A stretch of 64,000 nt of DNA from assembly GCA_943788985.1 (NCBI GenBank), contig CALSSJ010000044.1, positions 11,845 to 75,844 on the forward strand. The letters run 5' to 3'. The DNA comes from an uncultured Lentisphaerales bacterium. Its GTDB lineage: Bacteria; Verrucomicrobiota; Lentisphaeria; JABSQK01; UBA12247. The translations under genes and the position numbers were made by a program. The notes beneath the pieces are model-generated. The model saw only the letters and a program-made list of their open reading frames with translations, did no database searches and was not told the DNA's origin. Shown here piece after piece: positions 2,811 through 54,466 of this stretch; positions within the stretch are counted from its first letter, which is position 1, and the number at the start of each line of letters is the position of its first letter.

Positions 2811-3893
2811 ATGAGCCAGGTTTATAATTTCAGCGCAGGCCCCGCCACGCTGCCGGCTGCGGTAATGCAGAAGGCTGCCGAAGAATTCACCGACTACCAG
2901 GGCCTCGGCTACGGTATCCTCGAAGCCAGCCACCGCAGCAAAGAGTTCACGGCTGTCATCGATGGTGCGGAGTCCGCAATTCGCGAACTGTTGAGCATTC
3001 CCGAAGACTATTCCGTTCTGTTTCTGCAGGGCGGCGCGAGCACCCAGTTTGCCATGATCCCAATGAACTTGCTGGGCGAAGGGCAGACTGCGGACTACGT
3101 GGACACCGGTTCCTGGAGCCAGAAGGCAGCTAAGGAAGGCAAGCTACAGGGAAAAGCCAATGTCGTCGCGAGCAGCGGGCCGAACTACACGTCAATCCCC
3201 GATGCCGACAGCTGGAACTGCACGCCCGACGCTGCCTACCTGCATATCACCAGTAACAATACCATCTACGGCACCCAGTTTGCCAGCTTCCCGACCGCGC
3301 CGGCTGGCGTCCCGCTCATCGCTGATATGTCCAGTGATATCTTGTCGCGCGATTTCGACGTCTCGAACTTTGGATTGATCTATGGTGGTGCCCAGAAAAA
3401 TCTTGGCCCTTCGGGGGTGACGCTGGTGATCGCCAGGACAGACCTCATCAGCAGGGGCCCAGCAAATGTTCCCACGATGTTGCGGTATGACACCCATGTC
3501 GATAAGGCGTCGCTGTACAACACACCACCCACCTTCGCGATCTATATGGTCGGGCTAGTTGCACAGTGGGTTCAGAGCAGAGGCGGCCTGGCAGGCATCG
3601 AGGCGACCAACGCTGAAAAGGCTGCACTGATCTACGACTGCATTGACGCAGACGACTTTTACCAAGGCCCGGCTGCCAAGGCCGACCGCTCCAAGATGAA
3701 CGTCTGCTTCACGATCGGTGATGCCGAACGCGAGGGCACCTTCGTCAAGCAAGCTAGCGCGATCGGCTTGGTAGGGCTGAAAGGGCATCGCTCCGTGGGC
3801 GGCATGCGGGCAAGCATCTACAACGCGATGCCGATCGAAGGCGTCCGCAATCTGGTGGCGTTCATGCAAGAATTCCGCGCTCAGCACGGCTGA
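2811..3893 (+). CDS. serC: Phosphoserine aminotransferase
   Basis: 360-aa ORF starting MSQVYNFSAGPATLP, with full-length resemblance to SerC (YNTPPTF, GHRSVGGMRASIYNAMP). Confidence 0.95.
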   Translation: MSQVYNFSAGPATLPAAVMQKAAEEFTDYQGLGYGILEASHRSKEFTAVIDGAESAIRELLSIPEDYSVLFLQGGASTQFAMIPMNLLGEGQTADYVDTGSWSQKAAKEGKLQGKANVVASSGPNYTSIPDADSWNCTPDAAYLHITSNNTIYGTQFASFPTAPAGVPLIADMSSDILSRDFDVSNFGLIYGGAQKNLGPSGVTLVIARTDLISRGPANVPTMLRYDTHVDKASLYNTPPTFAIYMVGLVAQWVQSRGGLAGIEATNAEKAALIYDCIDADDFYQGPAAKADRSKMNVCFTIGDAEREGTFVKQASAIGLVGLKGHRSVGGMRASIYNAMPIEGVRNLVAFMQEFRAQHG

Positions 3894-4745
3894 TGGGCAA
3901 GATAGTGCAGACACTTACCCAGACTAGCACCGTCACGTCCTTCGGCGGGCAGCAGGCCGTTTACAGGCACACATCCGCGGCCTTGAACTGCGAGATGAAC
4001 GTAGGGGTCTATCTCCCCCCGCAGGCAGCCACCGGCCCCTGCCCCGTCCTGTATTGGCTCAGCGGGCTCACCTGCACCGAACAGAACTTTGTGACCAAGG
4101 CAGGCGCACAGCAGTACGCCGCCGAGCACGGGATCATCGTCGTGGCCCCCGGACACCAGCCCGCGCGGCGATGATGTCCCGGACGACGACGGCTATGACC
4201 TTGGCTGTGGCGCTGGTTTCTATCTGAACGCCACCCGTGCCCCTTGGAGCAAGCACTACCACATGTACGACTATGTGGTCAGTGAACTGCCAGCCTTGAT
4301 CGACGCGACCTTCCAAACGACGGGAAAAGCCGGCATTTTTGGCCATTCGATGGGAGGCCACGGTGCGCTCACTATTGCGCTCAAGAATCCCGGCAAGTAC
4401 GTGTCGGTTTCTGCGTTTTCCCCAATCGTGGCTCCCGCCAGCGTGCCATGGGGGCACAAAGCGTTTTCCGCGTACCTCGGAGACGATCAGTCCCAATGGC
4501 AAGCACACGACGCCTGCGCGCTGGTCGCGTCAGCCAGCGAGAAGCTGCCTCTGCTGATTGATCAGGGCGACGGTGACTGCTTCCTTGAGGAGCAATTGCA
4601 GCCCGCACGGCTCGAACAGGCTTGCGCCGCAGCTGGCCATCCGCTGACTCTGCGCCTGCAGCCGGGCTACGATCACAGCTACTACTTCATCAGCACATTT
4701 ATCGGCGACCACTTCGCCCACCACGCGGCGGCGCTGAAGGACTGA
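3893..4745 (+). pseudogene. frmB: S-formylglutathione hydrolase (esterase D family), split by a 1-nt frameshift near 4146-4152
   Basis: ORFs 3893..4174 and 4263..4745 together match the family (VYLPP...PVLYWLSGLTCTEQNF; [10 protein letters not shown]; [13 protein letters not shown]; GYDHSYYFI). Reading ...VAP then skipping one base at the CCCCCGG run restores [28 protein letters not shown]. Confidence 0.8.
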
Positions 4746-12268: not shown

Positions 12269-13252
12269 CTAGCGCGTGCGTAGCCAGCGGTCGATCGCCT
12301 TCCAGTTATGGTTCCCGAATCGCTTGTGCACTTTACGGAAACCGCCGCCGTATATCGGATCCGGGCTCTTGTCGATGGTGATGTAATCCTGCATCCAGCC
12401 CTGCTTGCGGCAATACATGGCAGCGGTATACTGGCAAAGCCCTTCCTCCAAGTCTCGCGGCAGGTCCGCGATAGGACGGTAGGTCTCCGAAATCAGATCG
12501 TGAGTTAACTCGTGAATGGCCGTGATAAGAAACTGATCGGGAGTTAGCCCTGACAGGATGAAGATGGTCTCGCTGACTTCTGTGTCCGCAGAGACCACGC
12601 GCCCGGCAAAGGAACGCGTCTCGGTGCGCTCGTTGCGCCGGTAGAAGCCGCGGGCCGTCATCTGATCGGGCATGTGGCCCTGCTCCCCCATCACCCGCAG
12701 CAAACTCGGGCGGTCCACCAGTTTGAGCTTTGGCAAGGAGGCTGAGACGATCCCGGTCACGGCCTTAAGCTGTGCACGTGCCTGACGAAGCCGAGCCAGG
12801 CCGTTCGCGGGGTCGAAAATTGCGGACTTTGCGCAGGTGGCACATTGCTTGCGCCCGTCTTTTAGCAGCTTCCCCGCGTCGAATGGCAGTCCACAGCCGA
12901 AGCAGCGATGCCCGTCTGCGTGCGCCTTGCAGTACTTCTTGCCATTGATGGTGAACATCTGGCGTAACGGCTGGGCGCAGAGCGTGCATTTCGGCAGCGA
13001 AATATTCAGACACTTCTTGCCGCAATAGGACTTGCCCTCGGATATCACAAAGCTTCCAGACACATGCTCCTTGCAGCTGGCGCAGGTGGGCAAGGTCCGG
13101 CGATGACACGATTTCGAACAGAAGGATTTACCTTCGGCCGTGAGGTAACTGCCGGAAAGCGCGTTCTTGCAGACGCTGCAACGCGCGGCTTCTGCGGAAA
13201 TCGCGAAGGATACCAGCAGGAGTATGACAGAGAAATATCTCGAATTGGGCAC
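12269..13252 (-). CDS. Secreted LIM-type zinc-finger + DA1-like (HExxH) peptidase protein
   Basis: Signal peptide, then about 5 CxxC...C/H zinc modules (CSVCKNAL..FCSKSCH; CASCKEHV..YCGKKC; CTLCAQPL..YCKAHADGHRCFGCGLPF; CATC). The C-terminal part IFILSGLTPDQFLITAIHELTHDL...EEGLCQY...DPIYGGGFRKV aligns with the plant DA1 peptidase core (ILILYGLP...HEMMHAWL...EEGICQV...YGxGFR). Confidence 0.7.
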   Translation of the reverse strand: MPNSRYFSVILLLVSFAISAEAARCSVCKNALSGSYLTAEGKSFCSKSCHRRTLPTCASCKEHVSGSFVISEGKSYCGKKCLNISLPKCTLCAQPLRQMFTINGKKYCKAHADGHRCFGCGLPFDAGKLLKDGRKQCATCAKSAIFDPANGLARLRQARAQLKAVTGIVSASLPKLKLVDRPSLLRVMGEQGHMPDQMTARGFYRRNERTETRSFAGRVVSADTEVSETIFILSGLTPDQFLITAIHELTHDLISETYRPIADLPRDLEEGLCQYTAAMYCRKQGWMQDYITIDKSPDPIYGGGFRKVHKRFGNHNWKAIDRWLRTR

Positions 13253-43724: not shown

Positions 43725-44918
43725 TCAGCCGCCAGTCTTTGCCCCTGCGCACCCACCGTTAAGCAAGCGCTCAAGGTAGTGATACTCAATATTGTACAGC
43801 TTCTTGATTGCCTCGATCTCCGCGAGTTTCTTGGACGCCTCCCCTTCGGCATTCTGGTCTTTTATCGCCACGATCATCACATTCTTCGGTGTGTGCTCAG
43901 TCGAGATAAACTCGAACACCTTGGTCCTGTACCCCTGCGACTCGAGGATAAGCGCACGTAAGCCATCGGTCAGAATCTCTGACTGGCGTTCCTCGAGAAT
44001 GCCAAAACGGGTGATCTCCTGCAACTCATTGCTGGGCTTGATCTGCTCACGCAGTTGTTTGTGACAGCACGGGGCAGAGATGATGATCTTGGCCTGAGCC
44101 TGGATGCCCCGATAAATGGCATCATCGGTCGCCGTATCGCAGGCATGCAGGGCGATCAATATTTCGATCCCAGCGAGATCCACTTGGTCGATCGCGCCCG
44201 CCCGAAACTCCAAACCGTCAAACTTCGCAAGCTTGGCAATGCGATTGCAGGTGTCCACCAAGTGGGGACGCAGTTCGATCCCGACAAGCTTGGGATCGAG
44301 CCCCAGGGTCTGGCTCAAGTAGTCATAGAGGGCGAAGGTGAGGTAGCCCTTCCCCGAGCCCATATCGAAAATATTGCCGGTCCCTTCCAGGCCCTGCTTC
44401 TGGATGATGCCACCCACTACCTCGACAAACTTGTTGATCTGTCGATATTTATCCTCGCTGTTTCGCTTCACCTGCCAATCAGAGGTGATCACGCCCAACT
44501 CAAGCAAGTAGATGTTGTTTTTCAGCTCGATCAAGCGCTTCTTGGTCTTGTCATGCTCAAGGTTCTTCGGGACTACGCGCTGCTTTTCCTTACGCTTGAG
44601 GCTCACGTTTCCGCGTTTATCGATCGTCAAGTGCCACTCACTCTCGGCTCGAAAAAGGTCGGCGTGCACAAATGCATTGCTCACCAATTCCCGAATGACC
44701 GCCATTCCCGAATCAACGCTGTGGTTTTTAGTCACGTCTCGTGTCGCATGGCGATAGACAAAACAAAGCTGCAGTCCTTTCTTCGTGCGTACCAACCTCA
44801 CGAAGACATTCTTGAAATCGAGGCTCTTATCTCGGGGCTTACTGAGCGTAAGCTTGGCAAGATCCTGTTGGGCAATGCTGCCTTCGACAGCAGTAAGAAA
44901 GGTGACCATTTTGCTCAT
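43725..44918 (-). CDS. Class I SAM-dependent methyltransferase (Methyltransf_32-like) with an N-terminal uncharacterised domain
   Basis: Shows NIFDMGSGKGYLTFAL (motif I), VGIELR and LIALHACDTATDDAI, typical of this family. It is visibly less GC-rich than its neighbours. Confidence 0.7.
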   Translation of the reverse strand: MSKMVTFLTAVEGSIAQQDLAKLTLSKPRDKSLDFKNVFVRLVRTKKGLQLCFVYRHATRDVTKNHSVDSGMAVIRELVSNAFVHADLFRAESEWHLTIDKRGNVSLKRKEKQRVVPKNLEHDKTKKRLIELKNNIYLLELGVITSDWQVKRNSEDKYRQINKFVEVVGGIIQKQGLEGTGNIFDMGSGKGYLTFALYDYLSQTLGLDPKLVGIELRPHLVDTCNRIAKLAKFDGLEFRAGAIDQVDLAGIEILIALHACDTATDDAIYRGIQAQAKIIISAPCCHKQLREQIKPSNELQEITRFGILEERQSEILTDGLRALILESQGYRTKVFEFISTEHTPKNVMIVAIKDQNAEGEASKKLAEIEAIKKLYNIEYHYLERLLNGGCAGAKTGG

Positions 44919-46176: not shown

Positions 46177-47953
46177 TTGTCTTCCGGCACCGTCACTCAG
46201 TTGGTTGAGTCCTTTCGCAATGACGAGGGGCAGCCGAGGCAGTGCATCATTCTGTCGCTGGGCAGGCCAAAATCAACGAGGACATTCGCCGCGAGGTCGC
46301 CAAAGTCGTCGCAGCCCGCCTGTATCACGAACCAGAACTGCTTGAACGGCCACTGAGGCCAGAGGCCGCCTGTTAGGTTGATCGTATCGTCAACACTGTC
46401 CAGCATTATGGAACATCGCCCCCCAGGCGCAAACGCCGCGCCCATCAAGACAACACCAGCTCGGAGGCGATTGATGGCGTGTTGTCCGACAAAATCGACC
46501 ATACCCACAGCACTACCTTGGGCCCCGAGCTTCTAGCCTTGCACGCCTGGAAGCAGCTGAATATGCCCGGTCTGCTGGAGACGCTCGGCTTCAACCAAGC
46601 ACAATGTGACGCCGCCGCCGTCAGGGTCGTTAACAGACTCGTGGCCCTCTGCAGCGATTATTTCATGCAAACCTGGCTGACCACCAGTTCCCTCGCCGAC
46701 CTGCTCCGCAGCGACATCTTGAACTTTGCCGATGACCGCGACTATCGCATCGGCGATAAGCTCCTGGCGGCCAAAGACAAGATCGAAGACCACCTTCCAC
46801 ACGCCCAAAAAGAACCCTTCAACCTCCAGCGCACTATCATCCTCTACTACCTGACAAATACGCACTTCGCGGGTGTCTGCGCCAAGAATCCAAAAGCCAA
46901 GCGCGGCAAGAACAAGCAGAAGCGCAACGACTGCCCACAGGTCGTTGTCGGCATGGTCTTCGACGAATTTGGCTTCGAACTGGCACACCAGACCTTCAGC
47001 CGTAACACCCGGGACTCGACCACACTCACGTTCTTGGTAAACACCCTCAAAAAGCTCACCGATAGCGATCAGGAGTTGGCCGACGCCAAGCCCATTGTCG
47101 TCGTCGATGCTGGCATCGCGACCATAGACAACCTGCGGCGACTGCGTGAAGAAGGTTTTAGTTGCCTCGTCAATGCCAGTCACTAACAGCGAGAGGTCTA
47201 GGCCGATCATTTTCGCGACGATAGCGGCTTTGAGGCAGTGCCCGGTCGCGAGAAAAACGGCCGAGCGCGAGCCCCTGTTTTGGTTAAAGCTGTCGATCAT
47301 ACTTTCACTGAATAACCCACCGGATAAGCCACCGAGGCCAGCGACAGCGAAAACACACCAGAGATCATTGCTGCGCGCTTGGTCTTGTGTAAAAGCGACA
47401 CTCCCGGTGACAAAGAACGTGCTATGATCAGCAAGGCCGAGGAGAAACTCCTTGAGCGCCTGCAGAAGCTCGCCACCCGCATCGCCATCGGTCGGTTGCG
47501 CAGCAACAACTCGCGAGTGGTCAGATTCTACGACATCGACTTTCAGGAAGCCAATAAACCTGCGAAAGGCGAGCCTGAGGGCGTCTTGCGCTACACCCGC
47601 AAAGACCAACTTTTTGCTGACAGTCAGTTGGTTATGGGCTGCTACGTACTACGAACCGATCAGCAGGATCTGCCTGCCGAGCAACTTTGGCAGCTATACA
47701 TCACCTTAGTCCTGGCCGAAGAGGGGTTTCGGCTACTAAAAACCGACTTAGGCCTGCGCCCGAACTTCCATCAGATCCAAGATTGCGTGGACGGGCACAT
47801 TTTCATCACCGTGCCTGCCTACCACGTACTGACGCACATCCTGTACACCTTACGCCAAGGCTTTCTGAGGCATCACAGGCGCAGATCTATCGCCACTTCG
47901 ACATCGACACGACCGCCTTGCCACAGAGCAAGGTGATCATCACACCAAAATGA
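46177..47953 (+). mobile_element. Decayed IS1634-family (IS4-like DDE) transposase gene: 5'-truncated, one frameshift, at least 5 in-frame stops and a 3' internal deletion
   Basis: Reads QLVESFRNDEGQPRQCIILSLGRP, then a shift near 46265, then an in-frame TAG at about 46374-46376, then YYLTNTHFAG..AKRGKNKQKRNDCPQVVVGMVFDEFGFELAHQTF..VVVDAGIATIDNL..GFSCLVNASH*. ORF 47379.. is in the same frame as ORF 46479.. (offset 900 nt), with four stops between them. The C-terminal GCYVLRTD..LWQLYITLVLAEEGFRLLKTDLGLRPNFHQ..GHIFITVPAYHV is followed by a frame jump to SQAQIYRHFDID. No terminal inverted repeats were found. Confidence 0.7.
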
Positions 47954-48495: not shown

Positions 48496-49908
<1,413 letters not shown>

Positions 49909-49984
49909 GTCCAGATTTGCCGTCAGCGCTGGCGCTCCCATCCCTAGCGGCATCCCTCCATCGCCTCCAGCCCGAATATGGTTC

Positions 49985-50275
49985 CTAAGAGTTTTCGAAC
50001 AGCTGTGGAACAACCCGGCCTAGGAGCCGGTAGTGGTCGACGACCAGCACGGCCCGGCCGTCGTCCTCTAGCGCCAGCCTCCCGGTCACCTCAACGGCAA
50101 AGCAGAGGTGACGGGGCATTGACGCACCGCTGACTCCCAACTCGAGCAGGTACTCGCCTTCGCCGTCGGTTTCTAACGCCAACGTCCGCACCTGATCCCC
50201 GTCCCAGTCGATCGGGACCAGAATGCCACGCAGGACATGCGTCGGCGCATCGGTGGAGGTCGATTTCGTCATCAT
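49985..50275 (-). CDS. Small hypothetical protein (96 aa) expressed from a sigma-54 promoter
   Basis: ORF with a GGGAGA RBS 2 nt upstream of ATGATG. A consensus -24/-12 promoter lies about 140 nt upstream on the same strand. Beta-rich sequence with no recognised family. Confidence 0.55.
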   Translation of the reverse strand: MMTKSTSTDAPTHVLRGILVPIDWDGDQVRTLALETDGEGEYLLELGVSGASMPRHLCFAVEVTGRLALEDDGRAVLVVDHYRLLGRVVPQLFENS

Positions 50276-50414
50276 GGTCTCCCTAGAGGTCGCCCTCCCA
50301 GTCGTAAAACATCAGGGCGGCGGACCAGTTTAGAAACTTGAGACTCCTTTGTCGGGTTCCGTCGGTCATTGGCGAAAGACAGACCTGTTAAGATCCTACC
50401 TACTCGCCACCCCT

Positions 50415-50430
50415 TGCAACTGCCGTGCCA
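50415..50430 (-). promoter_or_regulatory. Sigma-54 (-24/-12) promoter, leftward
   Basis: The minus strand reads TGGCACGGCAGTTGCA, an exact match to TGGCACG-N4-TTGCW with correct GG/GC spacing. Confidence 0.75.
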
Positions 50431-50527
50431 ATCGAACCAGACGTCGTCTGCAGCCCCACAAAAGACGCCAAAACGCTCCTCACACCGGGTTTTACTGAAC
50501 CACGAGATCCGATTCGATTACCAGGCA

Positions 50528-50542
50528 GGAACTTCCAGTTCC
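50528..50542. promoter_or_regulatory. Candidate enhancer (UAS) palindrome between the divergent sigma-54 promoters
   Basis: GGAACT-TCC-AGTTCC is a perfect 6-3-6 palindrome. A degenerate copy, GGAACTGCAGCTTC, lies at 50571-50584, about 42 bp (four helical turns) away. Both sit roughly 100-150 bp upstream of each promoter. Confidence 0.35.
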
Positions 50543-50662
50543 GAAACACTAATTGCGCTGCCCAGAAAGCGGAACTGCAGCTTCTACATCGCGGACTCTT
50601 GGTCGCTCCCCGAGATGCCTACATGCACCATCTTTCAAGGCTGCGCCATGTGTCCCCAGTGT

Positions 50663-50678
50663 TGGCACGCAACATGCA
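50663..50678 (+). promoter_or_regulatory. Sigma-54 (-24/-12) promoter, rightward
   Basis: TGGCACGCAACATGCA has correct GG-N10-GC spacing and one mismatch in the -12 TTGC. It is followed by AGGAG (50706-50710) and GTG at 50719. Confidence 0.7.
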
Positions 50679-50718
50679 AACAAGATGTTGTCCGACCTTT
50701 TTTCTAGGAGCGATTTCC

Positions 50719-51516
50719 GTGCAACACCCAAACTTCTCGCTGGCTATCGGCAACGGCCCGATCGTCGCCGCCGCCCTTCACGCAGGCCATCAACTCCGGT
50801 CCGAAGTGGAGGCGGAAATCACTCTTTGCCCCGCGGATAGGCTTCGTGAAGAAGATCCGTATACCGATCGGTGGACTCAGTTTTCCCCGACCCGGCTAGT
50901 TGTCCACACCTCTCGTTTTCAGGTCGACCTGAACCGTCCTCGCGGCAGCGCAGTCTACCGCACCCCCGCAGACGCCTGGGGCCTGCAGGTCTGGCGCGAC
51001 CGTTGCCCGGACGGCATCCTGCAGCGTTCACGTGCAGAGTACGACTCCTTCTACGGCATGGCCGAGCGCGTTTTCGACGACCTAGCCCGCCGCTACGGCC
51101 GGTTCGTCGTCTACGACCTCCACACGTACAACCACCGCCGTAACGGCCCGAACGCACCACCGTCTCCCCAGAATGAAAATCCCGATGTGAATCTGGGCAC
51201 AGGCAGTCTCGACCGCAGCTACTGGGCTCCGCTAGTGCATGCCTTCACGGGCGCATTGCCCAGCCCCGACTCCGGCCAGACTCTGGATGTACGTGAGAAT
51301 GTGAAGTTCCAAGGCGGCCACTTTGCTCGCTGGGTTCACGCCAAGTACCCGCACATTGGGTGCGTCCTCTCCATTGAGGTAAAGAAGACTTTCATGGACG
51401 AGTGGACCGGAGTAGCCGACCCCGCACAGGTCACCTTGATTCGCGACAGTCTTGCTGCCACTGTCGATCCAGTCTTGCGGGTCCTCCATTCCGTCTACAA
51501 CGCCCAATCCGCGTGA
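50719..51516 (+). CDS. N-formylglutamate amidohydrolase (FGase) family protein
   Basis: PIVAAALHAGHQLR, DPYTD, HTSRFQVDLNR, VVYDLHTYN and LSIEVKK correspond to the FGase-fold metal and active-site segments. The start was chosen from RBS and promoter geometry; the longer ORF from 50425 spans the promoter region. Confidence 0.7.
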   Translation: MQHPNFSLAIGNGPIVAAALHAGHQLRSEVEAEITLCPADRLREEDPYTDRWTQFSPTRLVVHTSRFQVDLNRPRGSAVYRTPADAWGLQVWRDRCPDGILQRSRAEYDSFYGMAERVFDDLARRYGRFVVYDLHTYNHRRNGPNAPPSPQNENPDVNLGTGSLDRSYWAPLVHAFTGALPSPDSGQTLDVRENVKFQGGHFARWVHAKYPHIGCVLSIEVKKTFMDEWTGVADPAQVTLIRDSLAATVDPVLRVLHSVYNAQSA

Positions 51517-51520
51517 CCTG

Positions 51521-53426
51521 ATGGCGCTCGACTCCACCATAGTCCAACGCATCCGGGAACGCCTTGCCACCAACCAGCCGCTGCGTTGTCAGGTTCCCGG
51601 AGGCGGCGTGCTGAACGTAGACCGGCAACTGCCGTTCCTCTGCGTGTTCCGACGTCCTCGCAACGAAATCGACGCGAGCATGGCCAAGCTCGTGCGCGGC
51701 GAGGGCGCATATCTGGTGGGCCGCGGTGATCGTAGCGGGCGTCGCAACACGCGCGAGCTCGTCCAGTTGACCGTTGCCGAGCTCGCCCCACACTTCGGTG
51801 CCTTCCTGATTGTGGAGCTGTGGGCAGCCGCCGAAGCATCAGCGGACATGGCCCCGCATTTTACCCTCGCCGCGCCGGCAAGAACGCCACAGGCGATGCT
51901 CGAAACCTTGCAAGCCGAGCTAGGACGGATGCGCGTCCAGCGACGCCGGGCGCGAGTCACGGTCGAGCGCCTGCCGCCGGTAGCCCCTGGCTTCTCGCCG
52001 CTACTTACGCCGGCCCAAGCCCAGGCGCACAACGTTTTCGTCATCGGGATCGAAGTCGCACCGATCTTTCGCGATCCCACCACGGGAACAGTCTTCCCTC
52101 TGGTGTTGCGACGTCTCCACCGAGGCTTGAGCCTGGCGCTGCGACGTTGCTTCTACGAGTTTGCGGTCTCCGCAACTACCCACCGCCCCGACCACTTCCA
52201 CACCCTTGGCCGTCGCGCTATGGTCAAAGCAGTTTGGGATGCGGACGCGGCGCTCGCCCGCATCGACCAGACCGTGGACTTCCTCCTCCTCGTCACCCCC
52301 CACCAATGCGGAAGCCGCATGGCGACGCTTCCGCCGCGACCATTTCGCCAAGGCCCCTGCCTTTCGCTACCGCTCTTTGCCATTCGACCCGGCCAAACTC
52401 AAGCGGTCATTGTTTGCCATCCCCATCGAGCGCGTAGAGGACCCCATGCTGGCCCGCCTCTTCGGCGACGAACGTCAGGACCTTGAACGACGCCTCAGCA
52501 TGCTCGTAGATCGCAACACGCCCAGCTTCCTCTACGGTAGCCTCCAAGTCTACGGTCCTGTCGACGACGCCCTCCTCGACCTGGCCCGTGACATCCTCCA
52601 GCGCCTGCCCCCGCACCGCTCCGGCTCGGATATAAGGGGCACGGTGGGGGCTGCGAAGTTCGCAGAAGCAGCCCGCGCTGAGATCGCCCGCTGCACCGCG
52701 CGTTGTCCGCAGTTTCGCGCCCGAGTCGAAATACGCGCCGACCTAACCGGCCTGATGGTCTCGCGCGACTGCCTCTACGTAGGTGCCTCGCTGCAAGTCT
52801 CAGCCCGGCGCGTCGAGGCACTCATCCAGCACGAGATCGGCGTCCATATCGCCACCTACTGTAACGGCGCTGACCAGCCGTTCGCCCAGCTACGCCACGG
52901 CCTTACCGGCTATGAAGAACTCCAGGAAGGCCTCGCAGTCTTTGCAGAATACCTGGTTGGCGGCTTCACCGGCCCCCGGCTCCGTCTGCTTGCCGCCCGC
53001 GTCGTGGCCGCCCGTATGGTCACCGAAGGAAGCGACTTTCTCTCGATCTTCCATGCCCTCCGCGACGAGGGCCAGTTCGATTCCCGTACCGCCTATCTGG
53101 TGACCATGCGCGTGACCCGCGGTGGTGGTTTCACCAAAGACGCCGTCTATCTGCGCGGCCTGGTCTCGCTGCTGAAGCACCTAGCGGACGGTGGCGAAAT
53201 TGAACCGCTGTACGTCGGAAAAATCGCCGAACAGCACATGGCATTTGTCCGTGAGTTACAATGGCGTCGCGTCCTCCGATCGCCCCTTTTCATCCCCTCC
53301 TATCTCACCGACGAGGCCGGCCGCGAACGTCTTGCTGCCGCTCGCACCGGACTGCATGTCTGCGACCTCGTAGGTATCCGCCCGAACCTAACCAGAACCA
53401 CCATCCGCAAGGCCCCCCCCTCATGA
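51521..53426 (+). CDS. DUF1704 / QEGLA-motif protein (putative metallo-carboxypeptidase-like), frame interrupted in a C6 run at 52296-52301
   Basis: ORF 51452.. (ATG 51521) joins ORF 52161.. at DFLLLVTP/TNAEAAWRRF. The C-terminal part has HEIGVHIATY (HExxH) and GYEELQEGLAVFAEY, the family-defining QEGLA motif. Confidence 0.8.
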
Positions 53427-54466
53427 GAATCGCCTTCTTCGTCAACGACATCGCTACCGAGCTCCCCAACTACACGACCACCCGCTTGGCTATGACCGCC
53501 ACCAACCGCGGCCACGACGTCTGGTATGTCGGCGCTGGTGACTTCGCCTACGACCCGGACGAGAGAGTCCGAGCCCGCGCCCGCGGCGCCACCAAGGGCT
53601 CCTACAAGTCGCTGGCCAGCTATCTCAAAGACGTGCAGGGCACCAAGGCCCGATCTGAGCGAATCACCGTGGACGACATCGACGTCCTCATGCTCCGCAA
53701 CGACCCGGCGACCGACCTGAGCCGCCCTTGGGCGCAGTCCGCAGGCATCACCTTCGGTCGCGTTGCCATGCGCCAAGGCGTCATCGTTCTCAACGACCCT
53801 GCGTCACTGGCCACAGCCATGAACAAGATGTACTTCCAGCTCTTTCCGGAAGAAGTCCGCCCGCGCACGCTCATCACCCGTAACCGAAGCGAGATCAAGG
53901 CCTTCGCCAAAGAATTAGGCGGCACCGTCGTCCTCAAGCCCCTGCAAGGCTCCGGCGGCTCGAACGTCTTCCTCGTGCGGAAGGACGAAATGGCCAACCT
54001 TAATCAAATGATTGAAGCCGTCTCACGAGACGGCTACATCATCGCCCAGGAGTATCTCGAAGCAGCCGTAGACGGCGACACCCGCTTGTTCTTAATGAAC
54101 GGCCGGCCGCTCCGCTACAAGGGTCGCTACGCGGCCTTTCGGCGAGGTCGCGGCGAGGACGATATGCGCAGTAACATCCACGCTGGCGGCCACAAGCTCC
54201 AGGCCACCATCACCGACGCCCACCTGCAGTTGGCCGAGATCGTACGCCCACGCCTGGTCCGGGACGGAATGTTCTTGGTCGGCCTAGACATCGTCGGTGA
54301 CAAGCTGATGGAGATCAACGTCTTCAGCCCCGGCGGTCTGGGCAGCGCCCAGCAGTACGAGAAAGTGAACTTCTCTCACGCCATCATCGACGCTCTCGAA
54401 GCCAAGGTCGAGTACATGCGTTACTACCGCCGCAAGTTCGGGAACATTGAGATGGCCACGCTGTAA
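53423..54466 (+). CDS. ATP-grasp ligase related to glutathione synthetase (GshB/RimK-like)
   Basis: ATGA overlap with the upstream stop. MRIAFFVNDIATE.. (GshB N-domain), VVLKPLQGSGGSNVF, and GDTRLFLMNGRP...NIHAGG...LVGLDIVGDKLMEINVFSPGG (ATP-grasp Mg/ATP motifs). Confidence 0.8.
   Translation: MRIAFFVNDIATELPNYTTTRLAMTATNRGHDVWYVGAGDFAYDPDERVRARARGATKGSYKSLASYLKDVQGTKARSERITVDDIDVLMLRNDPATDLSRPWAQSAGITFGRVAMRQGVIVLNDPASLATAMNKMYFQLFPEEVRPRTLITRNRSEIKAFAKELGGTVVLKPLQGSGGSNVFLVRKDEMANLNQMIEAVSRDGYIIAQEYLEAAVDGDTRLFLMNGRPLRYKGRYAAFRRGRGEDDMRSNIHAGGHKLQATITDAHLQLAEIVRPRLVRDGMFLVGLDIVGDKLMEINVFSPGGLGSAQQYEKVNFSHAIIDALEAKVEYMRYYRRKFGNIEMATL

Follow-up and report, generated by a model that had tools for sequence, protein, structure and literature searches.

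Introduction

Among the activators of sigma-54 promoters (bacterial enhancer-binding proteins, bEBPs), those of the Aquifex aeolicus NtrC1 / Sinorhizobium DctD class have a receiver that exerts negative control through a coiled-coil linker. In FleQ/FlrA, VpsR and HupR the receiver-fold N-domain is not a conventional phospho-switch, and the input comes from partner proteins or ligands. A further system of interest is the control region of zraP and zraSR in E. coli with its activator ZraR, reportedly described by Leonhartsberger et al. in 2001. Our subject is a 64,000-nucleotide stretch of DNA from an uncultured Lentisphaerales bacterium (contig CALSSJ010000044.1 of assembly GCA_943788985.1), which we call the window, and within it the intergenic region 50276-50718. 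We consider it highly likely that this is a bidirectional sigma-54 control region, with a predicted three-dyad enhancer for the activator encoded beside it at 48496-49908. One promoter faces a gene for a small OB-fold protein and the other an operon that begins with an N-formylglutamate amidohydrolase-like (FGase-like) gene. A preliminary description of the window had pointed to the bidirectional pair; that observation is confirmed here, and the interpretation given to it is supported.

The E. coli zraP/zraSR region resembles the window in having divergent sigma-54 promoters, inverted-repeat sites of the activator between them and one small stress-related output. The AAA+ and DNA-binding part of ZraR is also the best PDB sequence match to the window activator (1ojl, E=9e-80). 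However, ZraR, unlike the window activator, is a phosphorylated response regulator of the canonical kind whose kinase, ZraS, is encoded by a neighbouring gene, and ZraP is a periplasmic helical protein where the window has an OB fold; the binding motifs differ as well. Unlike zraSR, the activator gene of the window is not among the two divergent transcripts, although in the related locus L091, described below, it is one of them.

Results

The elements predicted for the control region are the following.

50415-50430, minus strand: sigma-54 promoter (-24/-12), TGGCACGGCAGTTGCA, toward the OB-fold gene, 0 mismatches to TGGCAC-N5-TTGCW
50663-50678, plus strand: sigma-54 promoter, TGGCACGCAACATGCA, toward the FGase-like operon, 1 mismatch to TGGCAC-N5-TTGCW
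50496-50510: dyad 1 (weak), TGAACCACGAGATCC, TGAAC-CACGA-GATCC, 2 mismatches to GGAAC-N5-GTTCC
50526-50544: dyad 2, caGGAACTtccAGTTCCga, with the perfect core GGAACTTCCAGTTCC at 50528-50542, the predicted central enhancer element
50571-50585: dyad 3, GGAACTGCAGCTTCT, left half perfect and right half degenerate, 2 mismatches overall

The 443-bp gap holds both -24/-12 motifs back to back and facing outward. Read from both strands, the two sequences are those quoted in the preliminary description, with the GG and GC doublets exactly 10 nt apart in each. The weight-matrix scan that it had proposed was run over both strands of the 64 kb with a heuristic matrix, whose frequencies are approximated from the published consensus. 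It ranks the minus promoter first (19.4 bits) and the plus promoter second (17.2 bits), followed by a third score of 15.8 bits. In Markov-1 simulations the mean number of hits of at least 17.2 bits per simulated window was 0.11, two such hits were seen in 0/100, and the chance expectation for hits as good as the minus promoter is 0.02. As a plain pattern, TGGCAC-N5-TTGCW occurs without mismatch only at the minus promoter and with one mismatch at four places, of which the plus promoter is one; at two mismatches it is not commoner than chance (40 observed, 39 expected from shuffles).

Both promoters are non-coding, the minus one lying 140 nt upstream of the OB-gene ATG and the plus one 41 nt upstream of the FGase GTG. 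We infer that transcription would start near 50404 toward the OB-fold gene, with a leader of about 130 nt, and near 50688 toward the FGase-like operon. A ribosome-binding site and start had been noted behind each promoter and both are present. The FGase-like gene is preceded by AGGAG-N8-GTG at 50706-50721 (AGGAG at 50706-50710, GTG start at 50719), and the 96-residue open reading frame (ORF) by GGGAGAcc-ATG-ATG, where the second ATG (50272) is the better one by spacing. No sigma-70-like promoter or terminator was found in the 443-bp region. An Rfam scan of 49500-51200 at E<=1 gave no match and the 135-nt leader of the OB gene folded with no excess structure (z=+0.85), and on these grounds a riboswitch or small RNA reading was dropped. 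The window has ten near-identical counterparts (more than 99.8% identity) among contigs from other metagenomes. Among them the intergenic region shows six single-nucleotide polymorphisms, none in the GG/GC cores or the dyads, a number too small to inform.

Further sigma-54-like hits were seen at 44234-44249 (plus strand, 15.8 bits) and 12838-12853 (plus strand, 15.0 bits) in the window and at 4204-4219 (minus strand, 17.6 bits) in L181, a closed genome assembled from a metagenome (MAG) of a deltaproteobacterium. The first lies inside a methyltransferase gene and the last inside groEL, both coding, and no dyad of at most one mismatch is near any of the three, which are probably chance matches.

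Between the promoters, the preliminary description had recognized one perfect dyad and one degenerate copy. Both are there, and dyad 1 at 50496-50510, which it had missed, makes three in all. The core of dyad 2 is the only perfect GGAAC-N5-GTTCC in the 64 kb, and dyad 2 is the window's best match to the extended family consensus TCGGAACT-N3-AGTTCCGA. The dyads are spaced 32 bp (dyads 1-2) and 43 bp (dyads 2-3). Counted from the GG doublet, their centres are at 74, 106 and 149 bp for the minus promoter and at 86, 129 and 161 bp for the plus one. This range of 74-161 bp fits the about 70-200 bp expected of upstream activator sites. Within the window alone the palindromes are not significant, shuffles giving a mean of 0.61 palindromes with 6-bp arms per region and P(two or more)=0.15. 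The support for the GGAAC dyad comes from other loci only. The shared palindromic enhancer proposed earlier stands as far as GGAAC-N5-GTTCC is concerned, which is enriched just upstream of sigma-54 promoters beside homologues of the activator. Its other part, the perfect palindrome CAGACGTCGTCTG (CAGACG arm) at 50438-50450, 8 bp upstream of the minus-strand -24 element, finds no support; it is outside the family dyad and is expected by chance.

The activator family was collected from metagenomes by N-domain alignment, which gave 80 loci, and counts of downstream features use those 58 in which 700 nt or more follow the activator. A homologue of the OB gene lies just downstream of the activator at 43 of the 58 and is the commonest target of the family; a sigma-54 promoter of at least 14 bits follows the activator at 42/58, and two or more dyads at 34/58. 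In the same loci the 300 bp upstream of a sigma-54 promoter hold perfect dyads at 1.87/kb, about 75 times the 0.025/kb found elsewhere, and dyads with one mismatch at 3.01/kb against 0.11/kb. From 112 sites the family consensus is aTCGGAACT-N3-AGTTCCGAt. The centre of the proximal dyad is 60-69 bp from the GG in 47 of 71 family promoters, and about 102 bp further upstream come distal pairs spaced 30-31 bp, to be compared with the 32 bp between dyads 1 and 2 of the window. The window has one compact cluster roughly midway for its two promoters, where the family norm is one triplet per promoter. The preliminary description had staked its reading on conservation of the motifs in intergenic regions of relatives, and the dyad as defined in the window was recovered in the independent loci L091, L092, L094, L096 and L099. 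These observations support GGAAC-N5-GTTCC as the predicted conserved enhancer motif of the family. For the activator family, its 'TYP' signature, the dyad and the OB partner, no description was found in the searchable literature, which omits most subscription journals.

Behind 65 dyad-bearing promoters the first gene codes for an OB protein in 29 cases, GroES in 6 and a KamA-like protein in 4. The remaining first genes include Hsp20, a DksA-type zinc-finger protein, an epimerase/DUF4301 pair and an AdoMet-decarboxylase-like protein, in classes that were read from sequence, not scanned. The chaperone-linked loci come mostly from contigs of sediment and groundwater metagenomes, and those activator homologues that are named belong to Desulfobacterota-like MAGs. 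The OB homologue nearest in sequence (P0243) is divergent from groES-groEL, with sigma-54 promoters both ways and six GGAAC-N5-GTTCC dyads between. Downstream of two further activator genes (P0127 and P0137) there is in each case a sigma-54 promoter (17.5 and 19.4 bits, respectively), then come small OB-family proteins that match the profile of the 96-residue family at E=3e-31 to 2e-20, and after these KamA-like radical-SAM and ATP-grasp genes. In L181, dyad triplets accompany the promoters in front of Hsp20, an OB-gene cluster and a KamA operon, all within 15 kb of the activator; groES has two dyads upstream, but no promoter of at least 13 bits beside them.

Two side observations concern these relatives. 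Genes for a KamA-like radical-SAM aminomutase, an ATP-grasp ligase and an ATP-grasp-GNAT fusion form an operon that stands behind the same promoter and dyad enhancer in L094 (8960-12803), L181 (13501-15401) and about 20 of L101-L180, and could be a beta-amino-acid or protective-solute pathway. In a separate branch of nine loci (L108, L113, L116, L118, L120, L127, L135, L136 and L149) the pseudo-receiver activator is divergent from a CorA-like gene. Downstream of the activator this branch has neither the OB gene nor dyads, and a sigma-54 promoter is missing there too at all loci but L136, which has one 14.8-bit hit; the branch may have a different target motif.

The activator of the window is laid out as follows.

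48496-49908, plus strand: sigma-54 activator (bEBP), 470 residues, PF00158 E=9e-68, AAA_lid_14 E=6e-25
residues 1-110: pseudo-receiver
residues 111-142: helical linker
residues 149-314: AAA+ domain (Sigma54_activat), then the AAA lid and a C-terminal Fis-type helix-turn-helix (HTH)-like segment

It is the only bEBP, and the only GAFTGA-type protein, in the window. The PF00158 match spans 166 of 168 profile positions, the protein reads GETGTGKG and FLDELG, and its sigma-54 contact loop at residues 222-227 is a variant, GSFTGA, that keeps the F and T of the family consensus GAFTGA. Over the AAA+ core the PDB sequence matches are ZraR, NifA, NtrC1, FleQ and PspF. At E<0.01 the Pfam scan did not detect HTH_8 in the window activator; several homologues have precomputed PF02954 matches. 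The segment AGITERQIHKLMTKHGL matches the family consensus AGIxVRQLHKLMxKYGL, so the same DNA motif is expected to be bound.

The N-domain was described earlier as receiver-like but lacking the acidic pair and the conserved Lys. Alignment with CheY and NtrC bears out both losses, the pair (CheY D12/D13, Mg-binding) being S9/S10 and the Lys (CheY K109) Y107. The conserved Thr (CheY T87) is lost too, being G86. The alignment refines the picture in one respect, in that the phospho-acceptor (CheY D57, NtrC D54) is retained as D50. The fold is modelled as a receiver: the AlphaFold2 model (mean pLDDT 91) has the (beta-alpha)5 fold followed by the long helix 111-142, and the top Foldseek matches are receiver domains including HupR, NtrC1, LuxO and CheY, with E down to 5e-7. 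PF00072 (Response_reg) matches 24/24 sampled N-domains of the family. The family signature is RKRRY-x-FIFVD and GA(S/T)(N/D)Y-x-x-YP, for which the window has RRRRYDLIFVD and GATDYLLYP. Among the 120 best homologues, which are full length at about 49-57% identity, 112 have Tyr at the K109 position, within a conserved GASNYLTYP motif. The acidic pair is gone in most members as well and the Asp equivalent to D50 is kept in most. The Lys-to-Tyr change is a conserved family trait and not decay.

With the acidic pair, Thr and Lys all replaced, the input signal is probably not canonical His-Asp phosphotransfer, which agrees with the non-canonical input suggested in the preliminary description. The absence of a nearby kinase gene, also remarked on there, extends to all ORFs scanned between 43.7 and 57.7 kb, about 6 kb either side, and to the neighbourhoods of the homologues in L091, L092, L094 and L181. 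The alternative that survives best is that the activator is an ordinary two-component response regulator, with D50 phosphorylated by an unlinked histidine kinase, which would leave the promoter and enhancer layout unchanged. Orphan response regulators with distant kinases are common, the N-domain has the receiver fold in both the model and the fold matches, and the residue aligned with CheY D57 is retained in most family members. However, the loss of three residues of the phosphorylation set, the missing kinase neighbours and a Tyr whose conservation indicates selection for a different chemistry make this alternative unlikely.

Two observations were made upstream of the activator gene. A fragment of an IS1634-family transposase lies at 47379-47936 (NF033559 E=8e-25, profile positions 283-433 only). 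The 46-48 kb region varies in structure among the near-identical contigs, and the BLAST alignments to L001, L003 and L004 split there.

The gene behind the minus promoter is given next.

49985-50275, minus strand: small OB-fold protein, 96 residues; likely start at the second ATG, 50272

It begins 76 nt past the activator stop but is inverted. Spacing from the ribosome-binding site favours the second ATG, which the public gene call uses (95 residues). A hypothetical protein from a marine Lentisphaeria MAG matches the 96-residue product with 100% identity. The domain scan found no Pfam or NCBIfam match for the product, the curated families giving only weak matches to DUF5818 and tRNA_anti-codon. 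An exhaustive HMMER search of 1.8 billion cluster representatives returned 40 distant homologue clusters of 80-120 residues that align well. The AlphaFold2 model from this alignment has a pLDDT of 90, with five strands and one short helix, and its best PDB matches in Foldseek are OB domains (the anticodon-binding domains of AspRS, LysRS and AsnRS, and RPA, SSB, PriB and YgiW) at E about 1e-3 and TM-scores of 0.55-0.6. The product is thus confidently modelled as an OB-fold protein, an assignment at the level of fold only.

We also considered whether the OB protein might serve, by its C-terminus, as carrier or substrate of the ATP-grasp ligase and the MATCAP peptidase, in a LysW-like or tubulin-tail-like manner; this found no support, the C-termini being not conserved across the family and the window copy ending in ...QLFENS. 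Some OB members have long poly-acidic (E/D) C-terminal tails reminiscent of SSB tails (L092 7759-8148, P0268, L096 3784-4089), and others have N-terminal segments resembling signal peptides (L094 8527-8871; L181 10351-10635 and 2580-2852). The family appears to have both cytoplasmic and exported branches.

Behind the plus promoter are three genes.

50719-51516, plus strand: FGase-like gene (N-formylglutamate amidohydrolase family), 265 residues, PF05013 E=2.6e-20, public call of the same length; first in the operon
51521-53426, plus strand: MATCAP/DUF1704 'QEGLA motif' metallopeptidase-like gene, 634 residues when intact, PF08014 E=3e-89, TIGR02421 E=6e-95; frameshifted here
53423-54466, plus strand: GshB-like ATP-grasp ligase gene, 347 residues, NF009110 'glutathione synthetase' subfamily E=7e-144, GSH-S_ATP E=1e-48; last in the operon

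The GshB-like gene overlaps the preceding stop codon by 4 nt. The MATCAP frameshift comes from an extra C in the run of C at 52296-52301 (C6 instead of C5), which is absent from all ten near-identical contigs; nine of them carry the intact 634-residue gene and L003 has further indels. The probable cause is an error in the assembly or the homopolymer, or else a slip specific to the strain. The preliminary description had called the genes on both sides of the control region genes of unknown function, and this holds only in part: the minus-strand product belongs to a conserved OB-fold family and the plus-strand operon is a widespread triad. The triad is complete at 68 of 80 loci from other phyla (L011-L090), where MATCAP has about 630 residues with a long N-terminal extension. 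These loci span more than ten phyla, including Chloroflexota, Acidobacteriota, Planctomycetota, Bacteroidota (Pontibacter), Gemmatimonadota, Myxococcota, Gammaproteobacteria and others.

Upstream of the FGase operons at these 80 loci no sigma-54 promoter was found (best score 11.1 bits) and no perfect dyad in 31.9 kb, and none of the loci has an OB gene or an activator of the family. Sigma-54 control as a general property of the FGase operon was rejected on this evidence. A bEBP is nearby at two of the 80 (L072 and L088), of unrelated types, FHA-GAF and canonical receiver. The operon is, on this comparison, a lineage-specific addition to the circuit.

The closest homologue of the activator (P0125, 55% identity), at L091, is divergent from an FGase-MATCAP-GshB operon. 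A promoter of 19.0 bits (TGGCACGAGGTTTGCT) faces FGase and one of 16.5 bits the activator. Two dyads lie between them, at 128 and 180 bp from each promoter by arithmetic on the site coordinates, a shared arrangement like that of the window. No OB gene was found within the 13.7 kb examined, and CorA, DUF432 and MscS genes follow the activator. Directly upstream of the FGase promoter of L091, at about 3822-3875 (minus strand), there are also four tandem repeats of 12-13 nt (GGCCGTGCTAA(A) / GGCCGTGTTGAG), which fall inside an over-long public gene call for FGase.

L091 bears on a second alternative, in which both promoters are genuine but one or both of them depend on another bEBP, encoded elsewhere, the adjoining activator controlling the OB-fold gene only and the FGase promoter being independent. 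The conserved partner of the family is the OB gene and not FGase, the FGase operon is normally regulated otherwise elsewhere, and dyad 3, the nearest to the plus promoter, is half degenerate. Set against this, the activator is the single bEBP in the window, the three dyads are roughly midway between the promoters, and at L091 the FGase operon is itself the direct partner of the orthologous activator, with a consensus sigma-54 promoter and dyads at that locus. We regard this second alternative as very unlikely.

Discussion

We propose that the activator would bind the dyads through its C-terminal HTH and assemble its AAA+ ring, that DNA looping would bring it to the sigma-54 holoenzyme at either promoter, and that ATP hydrolysis would then open both. 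Binding, looping and ring action are inferred from established bEBP behaviour. The receiver and long linker helix resemble those of the NtrC1/DctD class, which suggests that the N-domain may repress the ATPase until a signal arrives, and a probably non-phosphoryl signal would relieve the receiver's repression of ring assembly. The FGase-MATCAP-GshB operon may have been recruited as cargo of this circuit in the Lentisphaeria lineage.

The family targets (GroES/EL, Hsp20, DksA-type, KamA-like/ATP-grasp) make a stress response, whether proteotoxic, heat or osmotic, the most likely role of the family; the set looks like a heat-shock or proteotoxic stress regulon. In Photobacterium damselae, 1% instead of 3% NaCl induces the neighbouring genes for GshB and QEGLA by 38-fold and 27.5-fold (PMC10308900), and this induction at low salinity fits the stress-response reading. 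A broader and tentative idea, which we hold with considerable doubt, is that the pseudo-receiver activator and its OB partner form a phosphorylation-independent stress sensor. In lineages that include the Lentisphaeria and Desulfobacterota-like bacteria, it would run a sigma-54 'heat-shock-like' regulon of GroES/EL, Hsp20, DksA-like proteins and enzymes for protective solutes or peptides. The activator would receive feedback or its signal from the OB protein, in the manner of PspF and PspA, and the Lentisphaeria circuit would have captured the FGase-MATCAP-GshB operon, tying it to stress physiology. The feedback by the OB protein is pure conjecture.

Several points weigh against a shared, activator-driven control region with a role in stress. 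Two of the three dyads of the window are degenerate and the geometry is off the family layout, with proximal distances of 74/86 bp and spacings of 32/43 bp where the family has about 64, then about 102, then 30 bp. The activator has the GSFTGA loop instead of GAFTGA, and its N-domain is the most divergent of the family, with a PF00072 match (E=0.012) below the Pfam cut-off. The family is coupled to the FGase operon at one other locus only (L091), and the 80 FGase operons from other phyla have neither a sigma-54 promoter nor a family activator. Many of the surveyed loci are related: N-domain extraction captured 41/80, and these fall into about 16 clusters at 70% N-domain identity, 8 of them with all three features. 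No ORF with an RpoN box was found in the 64-kb window, and sigma-54 is only implied for this organism by the bEBP; an intact bEBP does imply that the organism has rpoN. The stress role, lastly, is read from gene names alone. The weakest alternative takes the motifs for coincidental matches in unremarkable intergenic DNA, with no working promoter or enhancer. It can draw on the palindrome and two-mismatch counts, which are at chance level, but is barely credible when the two best scores of 128,000 positions face outward from one intergenic region beside the only bEBP, no simulation having given two such hits, and when distant lineages have kept the dyad upstream of their sigma-54 promoters. The bidirectional region with its dyad enhancer for the adjoining activator thus remains the reading we prefer.

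Sigma-54 control by bEBPs is already well known, and the unit in the window brings no new principle. What is new lies in the large activator family onto which it opens: the conserved Lys-to-Tyr change in a receiver-like domain, the defined motif aTCGGAACT-N3-AGTTCCGAt, the stereotyped three-site enhancer and the dedicated OB-fold partner gene. The family also offers an entry point, through regulation, to two uncharacterised sets of genes, the FGase-MATCAP/QEGLA-GshB-like operon and the aminomutase/ATP-grasp operons behind the same enhancer elsewhere, and it makes receiver-fold switching without phosphorylation testable.

The window activator has the same order of receiver, long helical linker, AAA+ and HTH as the NtrC1/DctD class. 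NtrC1 aligns to it from residue 61 to 378 (E=4e-73), helix 111-142 is like the NtrC1 linker, and NtrC1 structures are among the fold hits. However, NtrC1 and DctD keep the full set of phosphorylation residues and partner kinases, whereas the window activator is without the acidic pair, Thr and Lys. FleQ/FlrA, VpsR and HupR, which have degenerate or phosphorylation-independent receivers, resemble it in this respect, and the HupR receiver is among the top fold matches. FleQ differs in belonging to another subfamily, in having no acceptor Asp and in controlling flagellar and biofilm genes. The PspF-PspA pair is alike in that the bEBP is not under phospho-control and acts on the sigma-54 promoter of a small protein, which could feed back, but PspF has no N-terminal domain at all and PspA is a coiled-coil ESCRT-III-like protein.

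The likeness on the side of the targets comes from predictions of sigma-54 promoters. The part of PMC12316311 that we draw on reports them as enriched upstream of GroEL, GroES, IbpA, GrpE and DnaK/J in Planctomycetota, Bacteroidota, phyla related to the Planctomycetes-Verrucomicrobia-Chlamydiae group and other phyla. As far as that part goes, these chaperone promoters match the GroES and Hsp20 targets of the activator family and fit the stress-response reading, although the window's own targets, unlike the genes listed there, are not chaperones. The same part scores promoters only and names no activator, enhancer motif or OB-fold partner; the family described here makes it testable which activator lies behind the chaperone promoters that it reports computationally.

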